DNA of 64,000 nt from a phage: sequence record PZ452611.1, one strand, 5' to 3'. Positions 4,385 to 64,000 of the stretch are shown in pieces. Positions within the stretch are counted from its first letter, which is position 1; each line of letters opens with the position of its first letter. The notes under the pieces are model-generated. The model did no database searches, was not told the DNA's origin, and worked only from the letters and a program-made list of their open reading frames with translations. The position numbers were made by a program, and so were the translations under genes.

Positions 4385-4960
4385 ATATCAAGTATAAGGG
4401 GGATTTCTAAAATGGATTTCCTCCTTTTGATATTTCACCGGGCTGGATATTTTAAAATTCTTAGAAAATCAGAAAATGGATCGAAAACTAAAATGGATTT
4501 TTTCAGCACAGGCGCGGAAAATTGTGCCAATCTATCTAGCCGTTTGCACCATATTCGAGATCACCGTTCCAGATTTCCCACACATACACACCTCTCCACC
4601 ATACCTTTCTCCACTCACTCTTAGTGATTTATGACGGAAAACCCATCGCTATCAGTGAGTTGCGGTACAATTTTTCCAGTACTCGATCTACTTTTCATCT
4701 CATGGCTTGGATTTTCTGAAAATTTTTCTCGATAAATTTCTCAGTACTCGATCTGTTTTTCGTTTTCTGAATCGGATTTTCTGGAAATCGTTCCGGAGCT
4801 CGACCTGAAATTTTTGGGGACGAAATCGATTTTTCGTTTTCAGAAATGGATTTTTAAAATTTCTATATGGGAATATTTTATGGGATACTGTTTTATAGGA
4901 AATTGTTACGGAGGGTAATTAGCATGCTAACTAAATTTATGAAATGCGAAAAGTTCTCAT
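4385..4960. repeat. ORF-poor repeat region (AAAATGGATTT x4, GGATTTTCTGRAAAT x2, TACTCGATCT x2)
   Basis: short direct repeats read directly in sequence; no convincing RBS-led ORF. Confidence 0.6.
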
Positions 4961-4974
4961 TTAGAATTTTGAAT

Positions 4975-5190
4975 GATAATCATTCTCGTTTGCAGAATAA
5001 CGGGCACCCCCGGTGATTGTCTCCCGGCCCCTACTGCCCCGGCTTGTTATTATAGTAACACACAGGACAAAGAAAGCAAGAAGTTTTTGCATAAATTTTT
5101 AGACGATAATGATAATCGTTCTCATTTTATGCAGCGCCCATCCCCGGTGGTTGTCTCCCCCGTCACCGGTGCCTGCCGTCCTTTCGATAG
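4975..5190. repeat. two ~55 bp direct repeats (GATAATC..TTGCAG..CACCCCCGGTGATTGTCTCCC)
   Basis: copy at 4975-5030 and 5108-5165; related inverted copy at 13801-13850. Confidence 0.55.
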
Positions 5191-5381
5191 GTATATTGTG
5201 CCACCTGGCGGGGCCGCTGTCAACACTTTTCAAAAAATTTTTCTAACCTGATGCGCTAACCGCTGCAACCTGGCGGGGCCAGCCTGGCAGGACCTAACTG
5301 ACCAGGTAGGAGAGAATGAAGGCTTATAATCTGGTGGGCCTGTGCTATAGGATAGGTAACAATTGAAGAGGAGGTACAAAA

Positions 5382-5564
5382 ATGAAAGGTAATATGATCC
5401 CCCTGGAAAATGTAGCGATTAATGACGCTGAGGCTATCGCCCTGGTTGAAAAGGCTATGGCGGGAGCGTTGGAACATAAAGAAGAGTACGAAAAATGGTG
5501 GTTAACCTGGCGGGGGCGGCGGCTGGAGAATTCTGCCCAAAAAATAATTTTAACTAATGGTTGA
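5382..5564 (+). CDS. hypothetical protein
   Basis: 60 aa, GAGGAGG RBS. Confidence 0.5.
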   Translation: MKGNMIPLENVAINDAEAIALVEKAMAGALEHKEEYEKWWLTWRGRRLENSAQKIILTNG

Positions 5565-5643
5565 CAGCTCGGACAGTTCTTGTTATTCTTATCCTCGCAA
5601 GGTGAACAACACCACACTAATTAACAGAGAGGATAAAAAAATC

Positions 5644-5841
5644 ATGAACGCCTACGGAATCAAAGTACGTCGCAGCACTCGCCAGGTGGTCACCGATCAA
5701 ATGGTTTGCCAGGTGGACGTAACCATCAACAACGGGCAAGGCCTTTATAAATTTCGTCGCGGTCATAGCTATACCCTGCAACAGCTTAATCGTTGCGCCC
5801 TGACAAAAGGTCAGATCAACCACTGGTTTAATAAAAAATAA
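5644..5841 (+). CDS. hypothetical protein
   Basis: 65 aa from internal ATG with GAGAGGA RBS (track ORF starts 5557). Confidence 0.5.
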   Translation: MNAYGIKVRRSTRQVVTDQMVCQVDVTINNGQGLYKFRRGHSYTLQQLNRCALTKGQINHWFNKK

Positions 5842-5844
5842 GTA

Positions 5845-5873
5845 TTGACATATAGTCCGACACCAAATACACT
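5845..5873 (+). promoter_or_regulatory. sigma70-like promoter TTGACA-N17-TACACT
   Basis: consensus -35 and near-consensus -10 upstream of gene 5906. Confidence 0.5.
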
Positions 5874-5905
5874 AAAAGCACAAAAGACACTAAGAGGATA
5901 AAATC

Positions 5906-6304
5906 ATGAAAACCACTACCTTTAATTTTGATAATGCAGACTTTTCTTTTTCTGATGTCAAGAACTGCCGCCGTGATCGTGGATTTTACAAGGCTTATAA
6001 TCTGGTGGGCCTGGACGATGACAATAATTTGCACGAAGTAGCTGAGATCCGGTATTATGCCGCCGCCAGTGGGAACACTTACTACTGCGTTTTTTGGATA
6101 CACGACAACAAGAACAATAAGTACGGCTATACTGGCGGCAAGGCAAGCGGTCACGGTTATGATAAAGCTAACGCAGCACTTGAGAGCGCATTAAATGCCA
6201 TGGGGATCACTGCCGACGGCTGGATCTACGAAGAAGAGTTTTTGTCGGCACTTGCTGACCACCTAGGCTATAAAAAGCACATTGTAACATGCGCCCACGA
6301 ATAA
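5906..6304 (+). CDS. hypothetical protein
   Basis: 132 aa, AAGAGGA RBS. Confidence 0.55.
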   Translation: MKTTTFNFDNADFSFSDVKNCRRDRGFYKAYNLVGLDDDNNLHEVAEIRYYAAASGNTYYCVFWIHDNKNNKYGYTGGKASGHGYDKANAALESALNAMGITADGWIYEEEFLSALADHLGYKKHIVTCAHE

Positions 6305-6310
6305 AAATCA

Positions 6311-6338
6311 TTGACACGCTGCAAAATTTAAGTAAACT
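6311..6338 (+). promoter_or_regulatory. sigma70-like promoter TTGACA-N16-TAAACT
   Basis: followed by 5'UTR hairpin GGCGGGAAtgttTTCCCGCC (6349-6367) and RBS. Confidence 0.5.
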
Positions 6339-6386
6339 AGACACAAAAGGCGGGAATGTTTCCCGCCAGCACAAAGGAAAAAGATC

Positions 6387-6791
6387 ATGAATAAGAACGT
6401 ACGCCGCATCATGAACGAGTTGGCAAACGATGAAAAAATTATTGACATGCATTTGATCAACATTTGCCGCCGTTGTGTAACATATAACAACCGCGCCGCA
6501 AAAGCGCGTGAGATGAACGCAAAAGGCACCTTAAAGCCATTCCAGGTGGTGGTAAAGGCCATTAAAGATGTAACTAATACGGCAAACCAGGTACAGGGGA
6601 ACACCAACGAGAGTACCAATATTGATCCGGCTTACATCATGAAACGGATCCGGACCTGCAAGAACAAAGAGCAAGTGTATAATGTCATAGACTGGTTGGA
6701 TTCTATGGGCGATGTGGTTTACAATAGGTTTTCTGCAGCTATCGAGATCCAGCTTGACAGGTTGGACGGTAAAGTACTAAAAACTTACTAA
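6387..6791 (+). CDS. hypothetical protein
   Basis: 134 aa, RBS AAAGGAAAAAG. Confidence 0.55.
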   Translation: MNKNVRRIMNELANDEKIIDMHLINICRRCVTYNNRAAKAREMNAKGTLKPFQVVVKAIKDVTNTANQVQGNTNESTNIDPAYIMKRIRTCKNKEQVYNVIDWLDSMGDVVYNRFSAAIEIQLDRLDGKVLKTY

Positions 6792-6793
6792 GT

Positions 6794-6838
6794 TTATTTT
6801 TAGATGGCCTTGACTCCAGGGCCATCGATAAAGTAAAC
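6794..6838. promoter_or_regulatory. conserved palindromic cassette TTTTTAGATGGCCTTGACT-CAGGGCCATC-ATAAAGTAAAC (copy 1)
   Basis: near-identical 45 bp element also at 7424-7470 and 11166-11210; inverted repeat GATGGCC/GGCCATC flanks TTGACT. Confidence 0.6.
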
Positions 6839-6871
6839 TAATCCCAGTTAAGCGAAAAAGGAGGCTTGAAG

Positions 6872-6991
6872 ATGAGCACTACACGCCAACACACAAAGGT
6901 AACGATTATCGTTTGCATCATTGGTTACATCCTGGCGCAAATGTTGATGGGTAGCGCCAATGATTTCGCAAAATTTTTCTTAGACTTTTAA
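6872..6991 (+). CDS. small hydrophobic peptide (39 aa)
   Basis: AAAGGAGG RBS then ATG; single predicted TM; below track length cutoff. Confidence 0.4.
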   Translation: MSTTRQHTKVTIIVCIIGYILAQMLMGSANDFAKFFLDF

Positions 6992-7071
6992 TTGACAAGC
7001 TAACTTAAATCAGTATAATACTAAGCACATAAACGGGAAAACTTCCCAGAACACCAAAAGGAGAAAACATT

Positions 7072-7422
7072 ATGAATACTTCCATCACTATGACCGCCGA
7101 AGAAAAAGCCCTGCAGATCGCCGCTCTGAAAAAACAGATTGCAGAACTTGAAGACAAGATCGACAATTTTGAAATCGACGAAGACAAATACGACGATAAA
7201 TATGATGAATGGTTGGACGAGATCTACGGCGAAATTATGATCGGAAACATTTCTTTTCTTCCGTCGCGTATCCTCAAGGAGCTAGATCCTATCGCTTACC
7301 GCTGCGGATTTAGCGACTACATCGACAGCCTGGATATTGAGGACGATGAAGAATACCAGGAATTACAGACAGAGCTTGAAGAAGTGAAAGAAGAGCTTGC
7401 AGAACTGGAAGAAAACGAGTAA
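7072..7422 (+). CDS. acidic coiled-coil protein
   Basis: 116 aa, AAAGGAGAAAACATTATG. Confidence 0.55.
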   Translation: MNTSITMTAEEKALQIAALKKQIAELEDKIDNFEIDEDKYDDKYDEWLDEIYGEIMIGNISFLPSRILKELDPIAYRCGFSDYIDSLDIEDDEEYQELQTELEEVKEELAELEENE

Positions 7423-7423
7423 A

Positions 7424-7470
7424 TTTATTTTTAGATGGCCTTGACTTCAGGGCCATCAATAAAGTAAACT
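7424..7470. promoter_or_regulatory. conserved palindromic cassette (copy 2)
   Basis: same 45 bp element as 6794-6838. Confidence 0.6.
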
Positions 7471-7511
7471 TTAGACTGTTAACACTTAACCAATACAGAG
7501 GAGTTAAAACC

Positions 7512-7757
7512 ATGGCCGCACTAATTACCAAATATTATGCCCCTACCAACACCAAAAGCGCCCGTATCATGGTAAAAGGCTTCGGACGTAAAAAGGTGTA
7601 CACCTGGGATTATTCCCTAGACATGGAAGACAACTACACCAACGCGATGACAGATTTTATTAATGAGCTGAACACGCGGATCTTGACAAATTATAAAATT
7701 ACCGATATTGCCTATATAGGGGAAGGCGGGATCTGTTTTGTCGGTATCGTCAAATAA
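7512..7757 (+). CDS. hypothetical protein
   Basis: 81 aa, GAGGAG RBS. Confidence 0.5.
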   Translation: MAALITKYYAPTNTKSARIMVKGFGRKKVYTWDYSLDMEDNYTNAMTDFINELNTRILTNYKITDIAYIGEGGICFVGIVK

Positions 7758-15459: not shown

Positions 15460-16059
15460 CTGTATTTCTCCTACCACAAACGGCCCAGCCTGGCAAGTGG
15501 AATAATTGACTAGCCAGCAATTACCAACACTGTACAAATATACATATAAAATAACTATTGCATAATCTTTCATCTTGTGGTAGCAGGGCCATTTTTACAC
15601 GTTTTCCTTCCAAAATTGCACGTAATGCAGCTATTGCATAAAATTTAACCTGATGCACATCTTCAATAGCTTGTCAACAACTAAAAATCTTTATAAGTCA
15701 TACACTTACATAACCACAAAAGCGTGTTCTACGTGAAAAATCGAGTATAACTATAGCCGCCAGATCTCAGAATTTACGTACGCTCACCATTCTATAGTCT
15801 GCTAAGTATTTATTCCAACCATAGAATAACAGAATAGTCAATACCTGCATAAAATAATTATTCGTGTAAACTGCATAACATAAATCAGCCGGGGTGTCAA
15901 CATTTTTCGTAAACGGCTCGAAATTATCACTGTGAGCTATCATAAACAGAGAAATCTTTAGTCGTCTAATGTTTACTGTACGTTACTATACTAACTGGAA
16001 TCATTAGATGACTAATAAAAAGATAAGAAATCATTAACAATGCAATTGTTTTATTCATA

Positions 16060-16395
16060 ACAATAAGGCAACTATGCAAACGAATGGCATGGCGCGACGG
16101 AGTCGCGACATAATATAAAAGCAGTAACCATCACCCCCGTGATAGTTTGTCTGCAAACTATTAATCAGATCATAGTTGCCTTGTATTTAGTTAATCATGA
16201 CATAAACTCAGGCATAGCCTTCGTCTCGAGGATGTTAACAAGCAAGGCAACTATAGATCTTCTAATAGTTGCCCTGCTTTTATATTATGTCATAGAAACA
16301 CCCGAAGGGGTGACCAAAGGTCACCTGGCATAGCCAGTGAAATATTGTAAACAAGTTAATTATTATCATGCAAACGAATGGCATGGCTTATCATC
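16060..16395. repeat. repeat cluster: TGCAAACGAATGGCATGGC x2 and GGCAACTAT/ATAGTTGCC x4 in alternating orientation
   Basis: read directly; no coding support. Confidence 0.55.
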
Positions 16396-16560
16396 TCTGT
16401 GTAAATAGTTTGTTTGTAAACAGTTTATACGTGAACAGTTAGCTGTGTAAACTATCAGGCATGTAAGCTATTGAGCATGTAAACAGTAAAGGTCGTGAAC
16501 AGTAAGCGAGCGAATAGTAATGGCGTGAACAATGACAGCGTAAACAGTCAGGCATGTCAA
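16395..16560. repeat. iteron-like array, about 9 copies of GTRAAYAGT at 12-17 bp spacing
   Basis: GTAAATAGT, GTAAACAGT, GTGAACAGT, GTAAACTAT, GTAAACAGT, GTGAACAGT, GCGAATAGT, GTGAACAAT, GTAAACAGT. Confidence 0.6.
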
Positions 16561-18016
16561 TTATGTTCAGTGTGTCACCATTATGTCATATTGTGTCAGA
16601 CAAGTTTTTCTCCTCTTTGTCAAGTGCTGCATGAAAAATTTACAATCTGGTATGGTAGCATTTTTGCGGCCCTGTTTACATTCAGTACTGTATGTATAAG
16701 CCTTGTTGTGTGGGCGCTTAGACGTCTAGACGGTTGGAAGTCTGCAGGTCAATATCTAATCTATTGGTTGCTAACTATATCCCACACAAATAGTAAGAAA
16801 TGCAATTGTTATATGCGTAAACTGTAACTCATGTTATCAATCCCTGTATGGATCGCCAGTGGTGCGCATAATAGGTATTATGTTAAATTGCCAGTAATGA
16901 TAACTATTCTCACAGTGATAGGTATTCTCATTCAACCCCACAAGATAGGTTGCAAATGTTGTGCCACTGTGTGAACGGCCTCGCCTATTAATTTGCCTCA
17001 CTGCCTCGATATTTGAGAATTATTATAAGAATGAGAAGTATTCCCATTTCGTCCGCCTGGCAGCACTCCTGTAGGTCAGGTCAAAATCGGGAGAGAACTG
17101 GACCTGTTCAGATATTTCTGGCTGGCTCTTCAGGTCTGTGTGGGAAAAGCCGACCCCTCCGGCGGCGGGGAGGGGGTCAATTAAAAAATTTACGGGGCAT
17201 ATGAAGCGCTCTTCAGGTAAGGCATGTATTATGGGATGAAACCCTCTTCAGGAAATGATATTTGTGGGTGTGATATTTGCTGGAAAGCTAGATATGACTG
17301 GACTCCTGGCGGGGCAGGGGTAGTACAGACAGGGGAAATATGGGGGATGTAGTTGGGTAAATTGATCAGGCAGGTAGAGTATGGAATATGTTACGAGTAT
17401 GTTAAATATGGAGGGTGAATATCTGCAGGATTTGTGTGTAAAATCAAAGACTTAAGTGGTGTTGTGGTATTTTCTATAAATAATTCAAGTTTAATAGGTG
17501 ATATTTGTCCCTATCCACTTTGTGTGGTAAACAGATTCAGATGAGATTGGTTTACGAGTGTATACATAATATACAAATTAAAGATACAAGAAACCCCCCT
17601 CCCCCTTCGGCTACCATTCACCTTTTCCTCTGACTGGTACTTAAACACTTATTCAGACTCTTCAGGTTATCACCCATATATCATATGGCAGTGACTGGTG
17701 TCCTCCGGCCCCTCTTTCGTCACCCGTCCGCTTCGCCATGCTAATGCCATAGCCAATGGTTCGGTTGTTCACCCTGTTCACTCAGGTGTATCTCCATACC
17801 CCTTCAAACCGAAGAGAACAGAAAACCCGAATTACTCGGTAAAAGAAAAGAGAAGAACTTAATTTTATCAGGATAAGCAAGAATGTCAAGGCATGACTGC
17901 TCACTAAACAAGCAAACAGTCATGTGTGGGAGGTAAGTGATTGTGGTGGTAGGAAATTTAGTTGAAAGATGTGTTATAGGTGCTCCCAGCACTTTAGCCG
18001 GGTAGCTAATTGTGTG

Positions 18017-26870: not shown

Positions 26871-27332
26871 CTACTTAAACAACAGTTCAAAATAGTGCAA
26901 AATTAACAGAAGTTGAATTACGCCTAGCACAACAGCAAGTATGTTAATCTTAGAATCAAAAAACTTCTTAACTTTTACCCTAAAAGGTTCCTTAATGTCC
27001 TTTACGATCCTATCTATAGATGACCTCATATCCCTGATTACCATCCTGAACATTAAAGACGGATGATCCCTCTCTGTAACGGAATCGAAAACATACTCTC
27101 TTTGATCACAAGGGCCGCCAGCTCTGCGTATTAACCTCTCCACAGAGACCTCGTACGACACACCTGTAACGTAATCATCTATGACAAGGAGTGACGGGTC
27201 TTTATCGTCCAAGGGTATCAAAGTTATCTTTCCAGATTTTGTTAAAATTTCTCCTTTTTCAAGTAAGGTGTACCAATGCTCTCTGCCAAGACTGTTGAGG
27301 CACGTTTTTACATATTTAACAAACATCGTCAC
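26871..27332 (-). CDS. hypothetical protein with C-terminal TM
   Basis: 153 aa; C-terminal LAVVLGVIQLLLILHYF. Confidence 0.45.
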   Translation of the reverse strand: MTMFVKYVKTCLNSLGREHWYTLLEKGEILTKSGKITLIPLDDKDPSLLVIDDYVTGVSYEVSVERLIRRAGGPCDQREYVFDSVTERDHPSLMFRMVIRDMRSSIDRIVKDIKEPFRVKVKKFFDSKINILAVVLGVIQLLLILHYFELLFK

Positions 27333-29474: not shown

Positions 29475-29789
29475 CTACCAGGTCACTGTCAAGTAGGCAA
29501 CTGTGTTATTTTTCTCCGGAGAGATGCCAACAACATCCACCTGCAGACCTCCTGCCCTCAAATCCCCAACAATGTGCGGGAAGTAATCTGAGAGATGCGA
29601 GGGTAGATTTATCGAAAATCCGCATCCCAGAAAGCCTGCTAACGCTTTATTTTGTATCTCCCCTACAATCGCATCATAAATGGAGTTAAGCTCGTCAGGG
29701 AGCGTTACAGGACGTTTTAGCGCTAACTGGTGTAATTTGTCCTTAGCACTCATTTTCATTTCAGGTCTACCTCTGGTGGTGCCAACCAC
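29475..29789 (-). CDS. hypothetical protein
   Basis: 104 aa ORF. Confidence 0.45.
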   Translation of the reverse strand: MVGTTRGRPEMKMSAKDKLHQLALKRPVTLPDELNSIYDAIVGEIQNKALAGFLGCGFSINLPSHLSDYFPHIVGDLRAGGLQVDVVGISPEKNNTVAYLTVTW

Positions 29790-30289
29790 ATAAATGGCGG
29801 CAAGCCTAAACGGTTTTTCTTATCCCACACAAAATATGCATATGCTTGCCCGTCAGTTCTGCCATTTGATTGAAATGACGGACGCTTAGATATTGTGATC
29901 ACAGTGGTAGGTGCATTATCAAGCCACCATTCAAATCTGGCTTTGCTTTCCAGAAAATTAAGACGTAAAAGCATAATAACTACGTCAGCATCTTTCAACG
30001 CCTTGTCTACAAACTCACGAGCCAAGCTGTATGGTGGGTTGGTGATAATACAGTCAACATGGTTGTATTCTGTATTCAGATAGTCAACACCTTCTTGGAT
30101 TTCTCCCCATGCAGATCCTAACGGCATACGGGAGTAGAACACACCTGAGGCACTATTCCTGCAAGGCTCTAAGTAGGTCCAGTCTTCTGGGAACGGAATA
30201 AGGTCATACAGCCCTTCTGCACACCACTCCGGTGTCACATACTCATCGTAGGCGTTACGTTGTTCATCAGGTTTTCTAGCACAAGTCAT
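29756..30289 (-). CDS. DNA methyltransferase (N6-adenine/N4-cytosine class, small phage Dam-like)
   Basis: CIITNPPYS catalytic motif IV. Confidence 0.6.
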   Translation of the reverse strand: MTCARKPDEQRNAYDEYVTPEWCAEGLYDLIPFPEDWTYLEPCRNSASGVFYSRMPLGSAWGEIQEGVDYLNTEYNHVDCIITNPPYSLAREFVDKALKDADVVIMLLRLNFLESKARFEWWLDNAPTTVITISKRPSFQSNGRTDGQAYAYFVWDKKNRLGLPPFMWLAPPEVDLK

Positions 30290-30340: not shown

Positions 30341-31390
30341 TTAAACTTCTTCGACAATTCCTGCACCCAGGATTTTTTCATTGAGCTCTTTTGCTGTTTT
30401 AATAATATTATCTACCAGACGCTTGCGAGTCTTATCTTTCACCTTAACCTCTTCACCGCCGTTCAGAGTAGTCTTCAATTGAGACAGAATATCCTGAAGT
30501 TCAACGACAGAGAATCTCTGCAGATCTTCTGAAGTAATCTCACCCAGGGCAATTCGGACGGTCTCGCCACTTTCCATCTGCAGATTCAGGAACACAGTGT
30601 GAACATCACCTTTCGAACCACCCGCTTTTGCAGATTCAACAGCATGAACTAACTCATCTAAAGATGTGCACTGGTGAATCTCCGGAAGACCTGCTTCACC
30701 TAACACGCCTTCTTCATCACCTTTTGCCAGAAGCTTTTTCGGTTTTTGTCCGTTCTGGATGCGTTGTATGTTGCCTTCATCCAGAATAATAGCTCCAGTG
30801 CGTGCTGCCAGCTCTTCTCCGTCCAACCACACTTCGCCACCAGCTGTGATGGATGCGATCTCATCTTCTGTCAGCACCCCACCGTAGTATTTTTCGATTA
30901 AGCGTTCGAAACGTTTTTTCCAGTAGCTGACCTGAGTATTCATGTTCACACCGTTACCATAAGTGCCACCTTGGTAGTAGTGGAACATAAACTCTGTGTC
31001 CGGAGCCACAGTGCGTTCTTTGCAACCCAGCCATAAGATTGTTCCCGCAGAGCAGCACATCCCTTCAGCATGTGCAACAACGCTTGCCTGAGACTCGCGG
31101 AATGCCTGCAGATAAGCCATTGCAATGTGCACGCAACCCCCAGGACTATTGATGATCACCCGAATGCTTTCTTCCGGCTGAGCCATACGGATCGTCTGCA
31201 GACGAGACATATGATCTTGTAAGTCTTCCAAATCGTCGATATAAAGAACGTGGTCAACAACTGGTGTTGGGTAGCTGTATGTTTCCATAATACCACCCGG
31301 CATACCGAACATTTTATTACTCATAGGTTCGAAACCGTTCTGTTTTTCTTTCATGCCGTGTACCATGGTGCTACGAGGTGTTAAATTCAT
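30341..31390 (-). CDS. ClpP-family serine peptidase (S14) with long C-terminal extension
   Basis: IINSPGG motif and ClpP-like core in N-terminal half; 349 aa. Confidence 0.6.
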   Translation of the reverse strand: MNLTPRSTMVHGMKEKQNGFEPMSNKMFGMPGGIMETYSYPTPVVDHVLYIDDLEDLQDHMSRLQTIRMAQPEESIRVIINSPGGCVHIAMAYLQAFRESQASVVAHAEGMCCSAGTILWLGCKERTVAPDTEFMFHYYQGGTYGNGVNMNTQVSYWKKRFERLIEKYYGGVLTEDEIASITAGGEVWLDGEELAARTGAIILDEGNIQRIQNGQKPKKLLAKGDEEGVLGEAGLPEIHQCTSLDELVHAVESAKAGGSKGDVHTVFLNLQMESGETVRIALGEITSEDLQRFSVVELQDILSQLKTTLNGGEEVKVKDKTRKRLVDNIIKTAKELNEKILGAGIVEEV

Positions 31391-31450
31391 GAGAAATCCT
31401 TAATATTGGAAGTTGAAAGCTATTTATTTAAACCTGATTCACATTTACCT

Positions 31451-31762
31451 TTATTTAGCAATCACTATAGAGTACTTACGATTGTCAGAAGCATCGCAGC
31501 TCAATGATTGCCAGTCTACCACATACCACGTATCATTGTCAACAATCACTTTATCGCCTGTTCTGTAGCAGGTGCTGCTTTCAATAATCCGAGACTCGAT
31601 AAAGAATCTGTGTCGGCGCTCACGTAGCAACGCTAAGTTGATTATATTGCCACCACTGTCCTTGATCCATACATTCTTGGATCCTTTATATGCCAGAATT
31701 GTCTCGCCGTTATAGACAAACAGGCAGTATATTTTATTTAGTTTCTCTTGTATTGTGGCCAT
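31451..31762 (-). CDS. hypothetical protein
   Basis: 103 aa ORF. Confidence 0.45.
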   Translation of the reverse strand: MATIQEKLNKIYCLFVYNGETILAYKGSKNVWIKDSGGNIINLALLRERRHRFFIESRIIESSTCYRTGDKVIVDNDTWYVVDWQSLSCDASDNRKYSIVIAK

Positions 31763-31865
31763 ACTATCTCCTTCTCCTTGTCTTGTCCGATAATAATATC
31801 TAAAGCTTACCTGTTTGTCAACAACTGTTTTAGATATTTAAGGGTGGAATAACCACCCTTCTGTA

Positions 31866-32654
31866 TTACTCGGAAACAGGGGTCCAAATATGATTTGCAC
31901 GATCCTCTATAAGATTGAGAGCAATCTGACGACCCAACCCGGAACGAACGACATCGTCTGGACTATCAAAGCTGATCATTCCAACCTCGGGATCTGGATG
32001 ACGAGTAAAGAAATCCGTCACCCATGCAAGGCCAGATTTACCAGGGATGTCACGTTGACTATTATCGCCCATAATTACAAGGGTGGCCTGATCAGAGATC
32101 CTTGTAATAATTGACAACATTTCTTCAGGGTTAGTTTGCTGTGCCTCGTCAATCAGGACAAAGCATCGCTCATCGAAACTACGACCACGAATGCTTTCAA
32201 CTTCACAAATCTCGATACGGCTGTTCTGACCATCTCCCAGCATTGCGGCAAAAGCACCTTTGCCAACACGACGACAAATAGTGTCCATCATGCTTCGAAG
32301 ATAGGGCCACAGTTTTTGCATTGCATTCCCTGGTTTAAATCCTGAAGTCTTTCCTGTCTGAACGTAAGGACGTGCAACAATGATCTTATCAATCTCGTTC
32401 TTACGCAGAAGATCACCTGCATATGCAGATGCCATGAATGTCTTACCGGATCCAAACACACCGTTTACAATAATAATCTTACGTGACCCTAGATAATCAA
32501 GATACTTTTGCTGCTTCTTATTCATTGGTCGGAGAGCTGGAGCAGTGTGCTCTCTTTCGTCAGCAAATTTCTCAGCAGCCTTACGCAGGCGATCAGATTT
32601 GCGAGCCTCTCTAGCTTCATCACGCATGCGTTTTGTTTCTTTAGCTCGACCCAT
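31866..32654 (-). CDS. phoH: PhoH-like ATPase
   Basis: Walker A GVFGSGKT, LIDEAQ motif, overall PhoH architecture. Confidence 0.8.
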   Translation of the reverse strand: MGRAKETKRMRDEAREARKSDRLRKAAEKFADEREHTAPALRPMNKKQQKYLDYLGSRKIIIVNGVFGSGKTFMASAYAGDLLRKNEIDKIIVARPYVQTGKTSGFKPGNAMQKLWPYLRSMMDTICRRVGKGAFAAMLGDGQNSRIEICEVESIRGRSFDERCFVLIDEAQQTNPEEMLSIITRISDQATLVIMGDNSQRDIPGKSGLAWVTDFFTRHPDPEVGMISFDSPDDVVRSGLGRQIALNLIEDRANHIWTPVSE

Positions 32655-55767: not shown

Positions 55768-56322
55768 ATGAAATACTTTGTAACAAGCGACACACACTTT
55801 CTCCACCAGCGGGTCATGGAGTTTGATTCATGTCAAAAACACAGATCTCAGTATGATCACAATCTTGACAGTATGAATGCGGGAATCATCGCCGAGTGGA
55901 ACTCTGTTGTGTCACCTGCAGACACTGTGTTCCACTTGGGAGATATTGCGTGCACTAATGATAAGAATATCAACAAATTACTTCCAGATATTCTAAATAT
56001 GTTGAACGGACATATTATTCTTGTTCGTGGCAACCATGACACAAGGACGACTGTCAGAATTATGAAAGAGTTCTATCACGAGGTTGTAGATTATTACGAG
56101 CTTCGCCACAACAAGAATTTGATCTGTATGAGCCATTACCAATTTGCAAAGTGGAACAGAAAGCCTCACGGATCAGTCCAACTGTTCGGTCATGCTCACG
56201 GAACCACACAACAGTTGTTTGGCAGGCAGCTTGATGTCGGTTGGGATGTGTGGGGGAGACTCTTACCATTAGAAGAGGCATACCGTACTGCAATGAGTTT
56301 TGATATTGACAGCAGGGAGTAA
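55768..56322 (+). CDS. calcineurin-like metallophosphoesterase
   Basis: DTHF, GDIA, VRGNHD motifs; start moved to MKYFVTSD (track 55663). Confidence 0.7.
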   Translation: MKYFVTSDTHFLHQRVMEFDSCQKHRSQYDHNLDSMNAGIIAEWNSVVSPADTVFHLGDIACTNDKNINKLLPDILNMLNGHIILVRGNHDTRTTVRIMKEFYHEVVDYYELRHNKNLICMSHYQFAKWNRKPHGSVQLFGHAHGTTQQLFGRQLDVGWDVWGRLLPLEEAYRTAMSFDIDSRE

Positions 56323-56369
56323 TCCCTGCTATTTTAAAGAAAATTGCCACACAAGGAGAATCAGGAGAT

Positions 56370-56720
56370 ATGAAAGATGGGGATAAGCTGCTATATCTTA
56401 AAGTCCCCCTTGAAATACTATCTATGTCAAAAGTTTTGAATGACACAACTGGGGAGGTTGTTGTTCTTGACTTGTATGACAAGATCGTATACTGCTACCT
56501 GCACAACTGGTATAAGCTTGGAGGAAATTCACGCTTCACACCAAGCACAAGGAAAATTGCAGCAGATGTTGGGATAAAGAAAACAAAAGCAGCAGCGTGC
56601 GTTAAAACTTTAGAATGTGCAGGAGTGGTTGAAACATCCACACAAGGGAGAGGTAAAAGATGCACATTTTCCAAAGTTTTGCCACCAGAAAAAGTTATTC
56701 GAATGTCAACAACTGGTTAG
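56370..56720 (+). CDS. putative HTH DNA-binding protein
   Basis: helix-turn-helix-like STRKIAADVGIKKTKAAACVKTLECAGVV; directly upstream of 21-bp repeat array. Confidence 0.4.
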   Translation: MKDGDKLLYLKVPLEILSMSKVLNDTTGEVVVLDLYDKIVYCYLHNWYKLGGNSRFTPSTRKIAADVGIKKTKAAACVKTLECAGVVETSTQGRGKRCTFSKVLPPEKVIRMSTTG

Positions 56721-60872: not shown

Positions 60873-61156
60873 GAGTTGCCACACTGTTTATTGCGTGCTT
60901 GTTATTATGTGGGTGTGCAACCAGCGTTGAGAGAGAATACAAGATTGACCCTCCGGATGTAGGAAGGTTGATTGTTAAACCCCCAGAAGGTGCCATGAAA
61001 CCACCTGCTAAAGCTATGCCTTTGAAGAAAGGTGCGCCAGATGCAGTGAATTCTGGCATTATGAGGGATAATAATCTGTCTTGTAGCAATGATAGAGCTA
61101 AATTGATCATTTTGCAAGACTATATTAGAACACTGTTTCCAAAGGAGAGAGGTTAA
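60869..61156 (+). CDS. o-spanin (Rz1-like outer-membrane lipoprotein), putative
   Basis: lipobox LLLCGCA, Pro-rich periplasmic segment. Confidence 0.6.
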   Translation: MRVATLFIACLLLCGCATSVEREYKIDPPDVGRLIVKPPEGAMKPPAKAMPLKKGAPDAVNSGIMRDNNLSCSNDRAKLIILQDYIRTLFPKERG

Positions 61157-61584
61157 TGTCTAAGATTTACGGACCGTGTTCTGAAAAGCAGAAGATGATC
61201 CTCGAAAACGATGCAGATATCTTGGTAATCGGCGGTGCAGCAGGGTCTGGCAAGTCGTTCCTCTTGCAGTTGATGCCACTTAAAATTATTGATGACCCCC
61301 ACAGCTCTGTGGTTATGTTCCGAAGAACAACCCCACAGTTGGAAGGTGAGGGTGGGCTATGGCCTAAAGCAGTAGCTATTTATAGTGATCTGCCTGAAAA
61401 CATTAAGCCAAAGTTTAGAGAGAAGGATCATAAGTTCATTTTTCCACGGTTTGATCCGAACACTGGCAAGTGGGATAGAAGCAAAAAGGGAGCTGTTGTA
61501 AAATACTGCCACATGGAGTATGTACAAGATAAGCTTAACCATCAGGGGCTTGAGTACACCATGGTTTGCTTCGATGAGGGTTAA
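61156..61584 (+). CDS. terminase large subunit, exon 1 (ATPase N-terminus)
   Basis: Walker A GGAAGSGKS, Walker B-like CFDE; frame closes at TAA inside putative intron. Confidence 0.6.
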   Translation: MSKIYGPCSEKQKMILENDADILVIGGAAGSGKSFLLQLMPLKIIDDPHSSVVMFRRTTPQLEGEGGLWPKAVAIYSDLPENIKPKFREKDHKFIFPRFDPNTGKWDRSKKGAVVKYCHMEYVQDKLNHQGLEYTMVCFDEG

Positions 61585-61587
61585 TTT

Positions 61588-61920
61588 GTAGCTCTCGTAA
61601 AACCTCCCTAATTGCGGGGAAATCTTTATTATTGACACCACCAACCTGTTATGGTAACATAATAGAGGCTTCGAAGAGAGATCGAAGGTATGGTAACAGT
61701 GTGTTAATTTAGATAATCCGCAGCGAAGCATCCGAGAGGATGAACGTTCAACGACTAGTCGAAAGACGTAGAATCAAGCGATTCGAAACGGGAGGGTAAG
61801 CGATTGTTGTCGCTTATAAGATATAGTCTGGTCTGCATGGAGACATGCAGCTGCCTGAGAATGGCGGGGCAAGACTAGCGACCTTGCCTGAACATAAACG
61901 ACACAATTCGAATGGGAGCA
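61588..61920 (+). mobile_element. group-I-like intron 1 (no ORF), boundaries approximate
   Basis: ORF-free insert between terminase frames; shares AATTGCGGGGAAATC and ATAGTCTGGTCTGCATGGAGACATGCAGC blocks with second insert. Confidence 0.5.
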
Positions 61921-61933
61921 GATAGACTATCTG

Positions 61934-62221
61934 ATGTCTCGTCTGCGATCTCAGTCAAAGTATCCATCAAGAATGGTTATCAGCTGTAACCCTGATTCAG
62001 AACACATGCTTGCCAAACTGGTTAGATGGTGGTTGGATGATGAAGGGTATCCAGATCCGGAGAAATGCGGTAAGAAAAGATATTTTATCCGACGCGACGG
62101 TGAATTTATTTGGGGAGACTCTAAGGAAGAGTTGATAGAGAAATACACCACGGTTAACGGACTGGGTGTAGAGATCAAGCCAAGACCGTTGTCATTCTCG
62201 TTCATAGGCGCAACCATTAAA
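61934..62221 (+). CDS. terminase large subunit, exon 2 (approximate)
   Basis: short reading frame (open from about 61898) between the two inserts; assigned by position, no terminase motif recognised in this segment. Confidence 0.45.
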
Positions 62222-62224
62222 TGA

Positions 62225-63194
62225 TAGTGGCTTCGTGCAGAAATGCACGTCGAATAACTTCGTTAATTGCTGGGAAATCCGATTGCTAAACGGACAATCA
62301 GCAGCTATAATTACCCTTCCGAACCTGTAGTAGGGAGATGTTTGAAATGAAAAATTTAGGCTTTTTAGGCTACAATCATTATTGTGCTACATACGATGGC
62401 AGAATTTACAGTCTGTATTCTAATAAATTCCTCCATCCTAATGTGCAGAAAAAGACTGGCTATGCTATGGTAACTTTGTGCGAGGACGGTAAAAAGTTCC
62501 AAGTGCTCGTTCACAGAGTGATTGCTATGACTTTTGTTGATAATGACAATCCCAGCGTGAAAACTCAAGTAAACCACCTAGATGGTAATAAGTTGAATAA
62601 CGCCGCATGGAACCTTGAGTGGACAACGCCTGAGGAAAACACACATCACGCTCATGAAATGGGACTTAAAAAGGACTATGTCAATAAATACAGGTCCCTG
62701 GATGATGCCACCGCTCTTGAAATATGTAGGCTGTTAGAGCAAGGCGCAAGGGTAAAAGACATTTGTGAAATGTTTGGTGTCAATCAACCACTTGTAAGTG
62801 GTATAAAGAATGGCTCAGTATACCCAGATATTTCTAAAGAGTTTAACTTTAGAAAAGTGCCAACCTCTAATCGGATAAGTGAGCACAAGATAATAGGTAT
62901 CTGCGAGGATCTTAGTGATAAGGTCTTGTGTGTAAATAAAATAGCTAAGAAGTGGGGAGTAAGTTTTAGTGTTGTTAAAGGAATAAAAGACCGTAAGACT
63001 TACACCTATATTTCAAACAATTACGATTGGTAATGTAGTTCAACGACTATCCTGAGAGGGAGTAGGGCGCAAGCTTATGGCGCTCGAAAAGCGAAGCACC
63101 CTGAAATGGGTGGTGATATAGTCTACTCTGCATGGTAACATGCAGCAGCACGTAAAGGTGCGGAAGGTGGTGTTGCGACCACCTTTGAATATAA
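62225..63194 (+). mobile_element. group-I-like intron 2 carrying HNH homing endonuclease, boundaries approximate
   Basis: conserved blocks shared with intron 1 (TTAATTGCTGGGAAATCC; ATAGTCTACTCTGCATGGTAACATGCAGC at 63118-63146); internal free-standing ORF. Confidence 0.55.
62338..63033 (+). CDS. HNH homing endonuclease (HNH_3 with C-terminal NUMOD/HTH-like repeats)
   Basis: VHRVIAMTF...NHLDGNKLNNAAWNLEWTTPEEN HNH motif. Confidence 0.85.
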   Translation: MFEMKNLGFLGYNHYCATYDGRIYSLYSNKFLHPNVQKKTGYAMVTLCEDGKKFQVLVHRVIAMTFVDNDNPSVKTQVNHLDGNKLNNAAWNLEWTTPEENTHHAHEMGLKKDYVNKYRSLDDATALEICRLLEQGARVKDICEMFGVNQPLVSGIKNGSVYPDISKEFNFRKVPTSNRISEHKIIGICEDLSDKVLCVNKIAKKWGVSFSVVKGIKDRKTYTYISNNYDW

Positions 63195-64000
63195 GGATTC
63201 GATAATCCTGTCTGCTTAAGAGACAACCCAGAATACCTTGCTTTTCTTGAAGGTCTGCCCGAGCTTGAAAAAGCCCAGCTTCTTCATGGCAACTGGTTTG
63301 CAAAGCCTGAGGGTGCAAACTATTTTCAAAGATCTTTCCTTCGTGATGCCGATAGAGTACCCCTTGGATCAGTATCTTGCAGGGCATGGGATAAGGCAGG
63401 AACCGAGAGAACTTCCGGTAATAAATTTCCTGACTTTACCGCCAGTATTAAGGTAAGTAAAGATAGCGACGGCTTTTATTACCTGTCCGGTGATTATTGT
63501 CCTGAGAACGTGGATGACGGGAGGTATTCCACAGGTCTGGAAGGCAAGTTCTGTAAAAAGGCTGGTGAACGAGATGTGATCATCAGGAAACAGGCGCAGT
63601 TTGATGGTGATGATTGTATAATCGTATTCTCTGTGGACCCTGGTCAGGCAGGTAAGAGTGAGTTCTTAACCTCATCCAGATCCTTGCTCGCCGAAGGGTT
63701 CAGGGTTGAAGAAGACCCAATGCCTTCCAACAAATCTAAACTGACAAGGTTCTCACCTTTTGCCAATCTTGCACAACAAGGAATGGTGAGGATTGTAAAA
63801 TCCAGTTTCCATCCTGATACTCTGGAAGCATTTCTGACTGAACTTGAAAAATTCAACGGGGAAAGATCAACATTTAACAGAAAAGACGACTGGGCCGACT
63901 GTGTAGCTTCTGCGATTAATTTCCTGGAGAAAGAGGAGGTAGCACTTCCTTGTGTGATTCCATCAATCTCATCACCTTCTATGTTCAAGCGTTTTATCTA
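63195..64000 (+). CDS. terminase large subunit, exon 3 (nuclease domain), truncated at window end
   Basis: open frame without ATG: LLHGNWF..., VFSVDPGQAGK..., RKDDWADCVASAINF typical of terminase nuclease domain; not in ORF track because no start codon. Confidence 0.65.

Follow-up and report, generated by a model that had tools for sequence, protein, structure and literature searches.

The ClpP fold is known from cellular ClpP, such as that of Escherichia coli (MEROPS S14), from ClpP-related head-maturation proteases of phages (NF045542; PHROG 1684, 94, 2976, and 133; MEROPS clan SK), and from non-structural phage proteins that include KVP40 ClpP, ICP1 gp211, PAK_P4 gp168, and T5/BF23 ORF45. 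The protein analyzed here, gp117 (ORF122), is a ClpP-like serine peptidase with a C-terminal extension. It is encoded in a stretch of phage DNA of 64,000 nucleotides (sequence record PZ452611.1), which is referred to as the window. The window corresponds to positions 58028-122027 of the record of Escherichia phage rV5 (DQ832317/NC_011041, Vequintavirus) in reverse complement, and the 4-kb surroundings of gp117 are 100% identical to rV5. In the rV5 record, gp117 (rv5_gp117) is named 'ClpP ATP-dependent protease subunit'. The comparison of gp117 with its relatives indicates, with a probability of about 0.6, that it is an accessory, non-morphogenetic ClpP-fold serine peptidase.

The non-structural phage proteins have a core with the same PGG, serine, and histidine residues as gp117. 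Their genes, like that of gp117, are located outside the head module among genes of nucleotide metabolism and replication, often just downstream of those for PhoH and ribonucleotide reductase, and they too are found alongside a separate prohead protease. Most of these proteins are 180-240 residues long and lack the rV5-type C-terminal domain of gp117. The head-maturation proteases share with gp117 a Ser-His peptidase on a ClpP fold, and many of them have scaffold-like C-terminal extensions; gp117 is also extended. Unlike them, gp117 scores half the cut-off of their family model, does not adjoin portal, scaffold, or capsid genes, is not the sole protease candidate of its genome, and is not reported in the virions of three Vequintavirinae, as far as the covered parts of the published proteomes extend. 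Cellular ClpP has the fold, the INSPGG motif, and the positions of the serine and histidine in common with gp117. In contrast to ClpP, gp117 has Glu (Gln in relatives) at the position of Asp171, lacks a homologous gating region at the N-terminus, and ends in an additional C-terminal region of 135 residues.

The gene and its expression signals are as follows.

30341..31390, minus strand: coding sequence of gp117 (ORF122), 349 amino acids and a stop codon, a ClpP-like serine peptidase with a C-terminal extension (open reading frame list, identity to rV5, Pfam and PHROG matches, selection analysis)
31397..31401, minus strand: Shine-Dalgarno-like AAGGA, 6 nucleotides 5' of the gp117 ATG (read from the sequence)
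31793..31821, minus strand: predicted sigma-70 promoter, TTGACA-17-TATTAT, 11 of 12 consensus positions, 5' of gp116 and gp117 (consensus scan)

The start codon of gp117 is ATG. The near-consensus promoter is P121 of the rV5 record, where it is annotated at positions 90207-90235, and its role as a promoter is predicted. Between gp117 and a metagenomic relative of 97% identity there are 86 synonymous and 12 non-synonymous changes. The corresponding ratio of non-synonymous to synonymous substitution rates (dN/dS) is 0.029 overall, 0.025 in the core, 0 in the linker, and 0.018 in the C-terminal domain. The low values for the whole frame and for the C-terminal domain indicate that the complete reading frame, including the extension, is a constrained protein and not a chance open reading frame. 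The gene is thus real and strongly conserved, and its product combines a ClpP-fold serine peptidase with an acidic orphan domain at the tail end. It is not a new gene, as it has carried an annotation since 2006 and is included in an existing PHROG. About 120 sequenced Vequintavirus genomes have it as a core gene, among them those of phages used for O157 typing and biocontrol.

The peptidase core is recognizable in both structure and sequence.

30746..31255, minus strand: residues 46-215, ClpP-fold core and post-core motif (AlphaFold2, Foldseek, profile search of PDB sequences)
31136..31153, minus strand: INSPGG, residues 80-85, oxyanion-hole region of ClpP (alignments)
31049..31051, minus strand: Ser114 codon, aligned to catalytic Ser97 of mature E. 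coli ClpP (alignments)
30980..30982, minus strand: His137 codon, aligned to catalytic His122 of mature E. coli ClpP (alignments)
30833..30835, minus strand: Glu186 codon, at the position of ClpP Asp171 (alignments)

The full-length AlphaFold2 model of gp117, calculated as a monomer from an alignment with 30 homologues, is confident for core residues 46-212, with a predicted local distance difference test score (pLDDT) of about 90. In a Foldseek search of the PDB, all of the 50 best matches to the core are ClpP structures (E-values of 3e-10 to 1e-9), with target-normalised template modelling (TM) scores of 0.63-0.70 over 160-173 aligned columns and sequence identities of 17-22%. A profile search of PDB sequences with gp117 returned only ClpP. 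The Pfam family CLP_protease matches residues 59-168 (E-value 2.1e-12), which cover profile positions 32-143 of 182, and the INSPGG motif is part of the segment VIINSPGG at residues 78-85. The first-pass annotation had recognized a ClpP core with this motif in the N-terminal half of the protein, and these searches bear it out.

The catalytic triad, which the first-pass annotation proposed to check by alignment, is retained in two of its three members. Ser114, His137, and the pair Gly84-Gly85 are invariant in 30 close homologues of gp117, and they are also invariant across the proteins of ICP1, KVP40, PAK_P4, Sugarlandvirus, N4-like phages, and Barbavirus, and E. coli ClpP. The position of the aspartate is occupied by Glu186 in gp117. 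Members of the rV5 group share this Glu, most of the remaining Vequintavirinae have Gln, and an Asp is found in short relatives such as those of ICP1 and KVP40. Sequence identity is low in this part of the alignment. The arginine that follows the catalytic aspartate of ClpP is not conserved in the gp117 family, and a post-core motif, LLDExNIxRxQxG, is nearly invariant in the homologues. The variation of the third residue among Glu, Gln, and Asp would suit a catalytically inert ClpP-fold assembly platform or decoy, in which the extension could be the functional part of gp117. However, the invariance of the serine, the histidine, and the two glycines from Vequintavirinae to KVP40, ICP1, N4-like phages, and E. 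coli ClpP, together with the low dN/dS of the core, makes an inert protein very improbable.

gp117 fits the families PHROG 5410 and 1827 and fails the curated cut-offs of both true ClpP and the ClpP-related head-maturation proteases. The profile of PHROG 5410, labelled 'ATP-dependent protease', is covered at positions 4-322 of 323 by residues 24-345 of gp117 with an E-value of 4.9e-155, and PHROG 1827 matches with an E-value of 2.6e-40. With TIGR00493, the equivalog model of cellular ClpP, the score is 33.2 bits (cut-off 308.6), and with the remaining ClpP models it is 21-39 bits (cut-offs 228-361). The cut-off of Pfam CLP_protease is passed at the domain level only (47.7 versus 20.2 bits). 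The best curated match is NF045542, a ClpP-related head-maturation protease, yet its score of 60.4 bits is below the cut-off of 120. PHROG 1684 gives 79 bits, and its alignment extends to residue 256, past the core.

The name in the rV5 record, which is also used in many other databases, presents gp117 as a subunit of an ATP-dependent protease. Taken literally, gp117 would be a true substitute for ClpP, forming a tetradecamer that docks to host ClpX or ClpA and diverts ATP-dependent degradation in the infected cell. The ClpP fold, the conserved serine and histidine, and a handle region of about normal length are consistent with such a role. Nevertheless, the role is quite unlikely given the large shortfall on TIGR00493, the match to only the middle part of the Pfam profile, and the lack of conservation of the arginine after the catalytic aspartate. 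In addition, none of three rV5 genes with an ATPase annotation (gp004, gp005, and gp077) is recognizable as a Clp-type unfoldase; they give only generic P-loop matches below threshold or kinase-like matches.

The region preceding the core also bears on the docking to an unfoldase.

31256..31390, minus strand: residues 1-45, N-terminal region, predicted to be disordered (pLDDT, conservation)

In the first 45 residues of gp117, nothing can be aligned with the axial loop and helix A at the N-terminus of ClpP, which serve gating and ATPase docking; this would also count against a ClpP substitute. Residues 1-42 have pLDDT values of 31-34 in the monomer model, which cannot show ordering in a ring. 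The region contains a conserved motif, N-x-[FM]-G-[MFYL] followed by [FY]-[ST]-Y-P, with the residues F28, G29, Y40, and P41. This FG...YSYP motif is specific to Vequintavirinae, and some relatives (Barbavirus, PAK_P4) begin at or shortly before the first strand of the core and do not have the N-terminal region. The hydrophobic-Gly-hydrophobic element of the motif superficially resembles the IGF/IGL loops that ClpX and ClpA use to dock to ClpP. The likeness may be a coincidence, or the segment may become ordered only in an oligomer.

The gene is placed beside genes of nucleotide metabolism, and its nearest neighbours are as follows.

31866..32654, minus strand: gp115, PhoH-like ATPase (NCBIfam PhoH, E-value 3.6e-40, below the curated cut-off with 137.9 versus 380 bits)
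31451..31762, minus strand: gp116 (ORF121), 103 residues, between PhoH and gp117 (no family match)
29756..30289, minus strand: gp118, small N6-adenine-methyltransferase-like protein with an NPPY motif, next downstream of gp117 (weak matches to Dam and EcoRI_methylase)

The gene is therefore located, as the first-pass annotation stated, between a methyltransferase and PhoH, with one open reading frame of 103 residues, probably co-transcribed with gp117, intervening on the PhoH side. PhoH is about 0.5 kb upstream of gp117, and the genes for NrdG, NrdD, glutaredoxin, and NrdAB are also upstream (NrdD, NrdG, and NrdAB at 2-9 kb). Comparable arrangements are found in other phages.

PVP-SE1 (Seunavirus): PhoH, further genes, and the ClpP-like gene, followed by a methyltransferase-like gene
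Serratia phage Kashira: PhoH, further genes, and the ClpP-like gene
ICP1: NrdAB and PhoH, then gp211, then DNA ligase, with genes in between
KVP40: frd, clpP, uvsX
PAK_P4: ClpP-like gene in an early block with deoxycytidylate (dCMP) deaminase and DNA ligase
Sugarlandvirus (Klebsiella): ClpP-like gene adjoining a deoxynucleoside monophosphate (dNMP) kinase
N4-like AD45-P1: NrdAB, one small gene, then the ClpP-like gene
N4-like VBP47: ClpP-like gene as the first gene past a divergent junction, with unannotated neighbours
Barbavirus: PhoH, Clp, and Dam methylase, a trio with an adenine methylase as in rV5

The same context was observed in 79 IMG/VR loci encoding relatives of gp117 (17 of Vequintavirinae type and 62 environmental), in which same-strand genes were recorded within 10 kb upstream. 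PhoH is present in 40/79 loci, NrdA in 42/79, and NrdB in 43/79. All 17 loci of the Vequintavirinae type have a methyltransferase-like gene directly 3' of the ClpP-like gene, and the gene order of rV5 with nucleotide-metabolism genes is seen in 17/17 of them and in most of the environmental loci. When the environmental loci were de-replicated at 70% identity, 15 clusters had 4 kb or more of upstream sequence, and PhoH and/or Nrd genes were present in 13 of them. Pfam and PHROG scans of 141 neighbouring open reading frames from seven representative loci, largely of T4-like phages, identified ribonucleotide reductase, gp32, gp59, RNase H, ThyX, PhoH, and primase. A few kilobases downstream, on the opposite strand, there are some baseplate and tail-tube genes of T4 type, and capsid and portal families are absent from the 25 commonest Pfam families of the neighbours in these loci.

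The gp117 family (PHROG 1827/5410) is thus widespread. In at least seven unrelated phage lineages and in the metagenomic viral loci, its genes are part of blocks for replication or nucleotide metabolism, usually a short distance downstream of PhoH and/or ribonucleotide reductase. Placement beside nucleotide-metabolism genes was used here as a working criterion for the family and is not taken from a published definition. The first-pass annotation held that phage S14 peptidases are usually prohead proteases. That generalization is incomplete, because this large family is consistently non-structural and encoded near ribonucleotide reductase and PhoH. The one-strand order of Nrd genes, PhoH, and the ClpP-like gene is kept across unrelated phage lineages. 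In a 97%-related Vequintavirus contig from IMG/VR, NrdD is present at 4888-7528 as two open reading frames (290 and 330 residues) about 0.8 kb apart, and, in contrast to rV5, no aerobic NrdAB genes were detected in the 10 kb upstream. The Nrd block of that contig may thus contain an insertion or intron, and its gene content appears to vary.

The head module of rV5 is located at 53.4-60.9 kb of the rV5 record, just past the end of the window and 30-34 kb from gp117. Its genes are ordered as large terminase gp065, portal gp064 (Portal_Mu), gp063, gp062, decoration protein gp061, and major capsid protein gp060 (Phage_cap_E), where gp062 is a putative scaffold of 325 residues (PHROG 2970). The distance of gp117 from structural genes, pointed out in the first-pass annotation, therefore applies to the head genes. 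It does not apply to ORF133 (gp128), which is an abundant virion protein of rV5 according to mass spectrometry (PMC3606486). ORF133 is encoded at 26871-27332 on the minus strand, in the non-structural block about 3 kb downstream of gp117; it has 153 residues, a hydrophobic C-terminus, and no Pfam match.

The portal gene is adjoined by a different protease gene, about 34 kb from gp117.

rV5 record 55883-56455, minus strand, just outside the window: gp063, XkdF-type protease candidate (Pfam Peptidase_S78_2)

The protein gp063 matches Peptidase_S78_2 (XkdF, PF14550) with an E-value of 1.1e-17, and its best PHROG is 1530. It is, like gp117, a serine peptidase candidate of rV5, but it belongs to an unrelated fold family. 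RefSeq and PHROG 1530 label it 'DNA methyltransferase', which is likely an annotation error propagated through PHROG. In the Vequintavirinae phage W70, the portal-adjoining PHROG 1530 protein is called 'capsid maturation protease' and is listed among 28 virion proteins in the covered part of the report (PMC11370258), and in Certrevirus CB7 a portal-adjoining protein of 21 kDa is described in the corresponding part as a 'prohead core protein protease' of the virion (PMC7344957). Both orthologues were detected by mass spectrometry. The virion data set of rV5, comprising 19 proteins, has no entry of 349 residues (PMC3606486), and a ClpP-like protein is not mentioned in the covered text and tables of the CB7 (PMC7344957) and W70 (PMC11370258) virion proteomes. 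Because gp063 adjoins the portal gene, gp117 is almost certainly not the capsid-maturation protease. The suggestion that gp117 is a displaced prohead protease is consequently not upheld as a description of its function; judging from sequence relationships, gp117 may be one in an evolutionary sense only.

Coexistence of the two kinds of protease has also been described for the T5-like phage BF23, in which 'Clp protease (ORF45)', with a function given as 'currently unknown', is present together with the true prohead protease ORF164 (PMC10644984). However, ORF45 was found at a low level, with three peptides, in purified BF23 virions (PMC10644984). This finding fits a second capsid- or virion-associated maturation protease, which would enter the prohead and act there with gp063 on internal, ejection, or scaffold proteins and for which the acidic domain of gp117 would be scaffold-like or capsid-targeting. 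Phages commonly encode fusions of protease and scaffold with helical extensions at the C-terminus, the nearest curated models of gp117 are head-maturation proteases, the alignment with PHROG 1684 continues past the core, and a virion protein, ORF133, is encoded 3 kb away. Such a role of gp117 is nevertheless unlikely. Every head-maturation model scores below its curated cut-off, and most family members lack the C-terminal domain. The gp117 gene is 30-34 kb away from the head module and follows a sigma-70 promoter, and its block keeps its synteny in lineages whose capsids differ. The family is also present in T4-like phages, which mature their heads with gp21. In the covered parts of the virion reports for rV5, CB7, and W70, gp117 is not reported, whereas the XkdF-type protease is reported for CB7 and W70.

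Several observations weigh against an accessory, non-morphogenetic peptidase and are reflected in its probability. Besides the BF23 peptides, the core of gp117 scores higher on head-maturation models (NF045542, PHROG 1684) than on cellular ClpP models, so gp117 may have a morphogenetic ancestry or retain some morphogenetic role. Prohead proteases often leave the capsid and are absent from mature virions, and the absence of gp117 from virion proteomes is therefore weak evidence. In many close relatives, Gln takes the third position of the triad, which leaves a Ser-His dyad. The promoter consensus and the gene neighbourhood are the only indications that gp117 would be expressed in the early or middle phase of infection, and the literature searched contains no experimental work on the activity, timing, oligomeric state, or substrates of any family member.

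The C-terminal extension distinguishes gp117 from most of its relatives.

30662..30745, minus strand: residues 216-243, variable, charged linker, predicted to be disordered (pLDDT, conservation)
30344..30661, minus strand: residues 244-349, C-terminal domain formed of a helix, a beta-hairpin, and three helices (AlphaFold2, residues 244-342)

The linker has a pLDDT of 39 over residues 221-240, is disordered in the model at residues 222-237, and consists of poorly conserved columns. The C-terminal domain modelled alone has a pLDDT of 75.5 and a predicted TM score of 0.60. Its residues F293, E297, and R322 are invariant among the homologues, and it is acidic, with a net charge of -8 to -22 in most members. 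The last approximately 135 residues of gp117 have no significant match to a Pfam family. A search of BFVD with the C-terminal domain gave one significant match, a protein of 303 residues taken as a family member, and a hidden Markov model of the domain retrieved five entries from 1.84 billion representative proteins, all of which belong to the same fusion family or its fragments. The extension is thus without a recognizable match outside the family, as had been noted from the sequence. In tblastn searches, about 182 of 1111 matching phage records cover at least 80% of gp117, and the remainder match the core only. The domain is an orphan restricted to Vequintavirinae-type proteins.

A helix-extended-helix domain of the SAP, HeH, or Rho-N type was considered for the C-terminus and rejected, as there is no significant match in sequence or fold and no basic surface. 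The acidic charge counts against the DNA-binding helix-extended-helix reading that the sequence pattern had first suggested. Homology with the extensions of ICP1 gp211 (326 residues) and KVP40 ClpP (239 residues) was also rejected, because hhalign aligns the core only.

As an accessory peptidase, gp117 would probably be transcribed from the sigma-70-type promoter together with genes of nucleotide metabolism and replication. It is expected to be active and to assemble into a ClpP-like ring, because the oxyanion glycines, Ser114, and His137 are kept, with Glu186 at the third position. It would work in the cytoplasm of the infected cell and not inside the prohead, where capsid maturation would be carried out by gp063. 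The flexible linker may tether the acidic alpha/beta domain as a module that recruits partners or substrates. Action of gp117 on host proteins, proposed in the first-pass annotation, is compatible with all of the observations.

The family of gp117 spans T5-like, T4-like, ICP1, Pakpunavirus, and N4-like phages and many marine viral contigs, and its members are routinely mislabelled as 'ATP-dependent Clp protease' or 'head maturation protease'. Separating the family from prohead proteases corrects annotations such as that of rV5 gp063. In the literature searched, the orphan domain specific to Vequintavirinae, the failure of gp117 in both kinds of curated families, and the breadth of the Nrd/PhoH-ClpP-like neighbourhood appear to be undescribed. 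The text of the rV5 paper does not discuss the gp117 gene, and searches for phage-encoded ClpP, ClpP-like proteins with PhoH, and ICP1 ClpP returned nothing useful.

A preprint from 2026 describes cGAS/DncV-like nucleotidyltransferases (CD-NTases) of cyclic-oligonucleotide-based antiphage signalling systems (CBASS) that are switched on by cleavage by a phage protease (PMC12991175). One such CBASS operon restricts the Vequintavirinae phages Bas48-59, with a specificity differing from that for T4 gp21, and the protease is not named (PMC12991175). Since each Vequintavirinae genome encodes two protease candidates with separable roles, the question of the CBASS trigger is directly testable. As a speculation with long odds against it, the ClpP-like peptidases encoded next to PhoH and ribonucleotide reductase in many unrelated virulent phages could form a hitherto unrecognized 'early' viral proteolysis module that remodels the host proteome or destroys host defence or DNA-binding proteins in the cytoplasm. 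The acidic domain of Vequintavirinae would then be a bait, possibly a DNA mimic, and gp117, and not the prohead protease, would be the activity sensed by CBASS (CdnG) in Bas48-59. A functional coupling of gp117 with the neighbouring PhoH ATPase is conceivable at the same level of speculation. A search with PADLOC gave no match that would assign gp117 itself to a defence system.

Two other regions of the window have unusual features. The segment 15413-18016 comprises 2.6 kb without annotated genes at the junction of two large transcription units, where the GC skew changes sign. It contains only one open reading frame of 110 residues, starting with GTG, and has no Rfam match. Direct repeats containing GTAAAC are clustered at 16431-16841, three of them spaced by 16 nucleotides, and inverted repeats are located at 16057-16291. 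Possibly, the segment serves as an origin of the iteron type or has a regulatory role. The gene for the large terminase, at 61156-64000 on the plus strand, runs past the end of the window and is the only gene of the head and packaging module within it. The rV5 record gives the terminase as three joined pieces with a gene for an HNH endonuclease within the span, and 'Introns in terminase' is a section heading of the rV5 paper.

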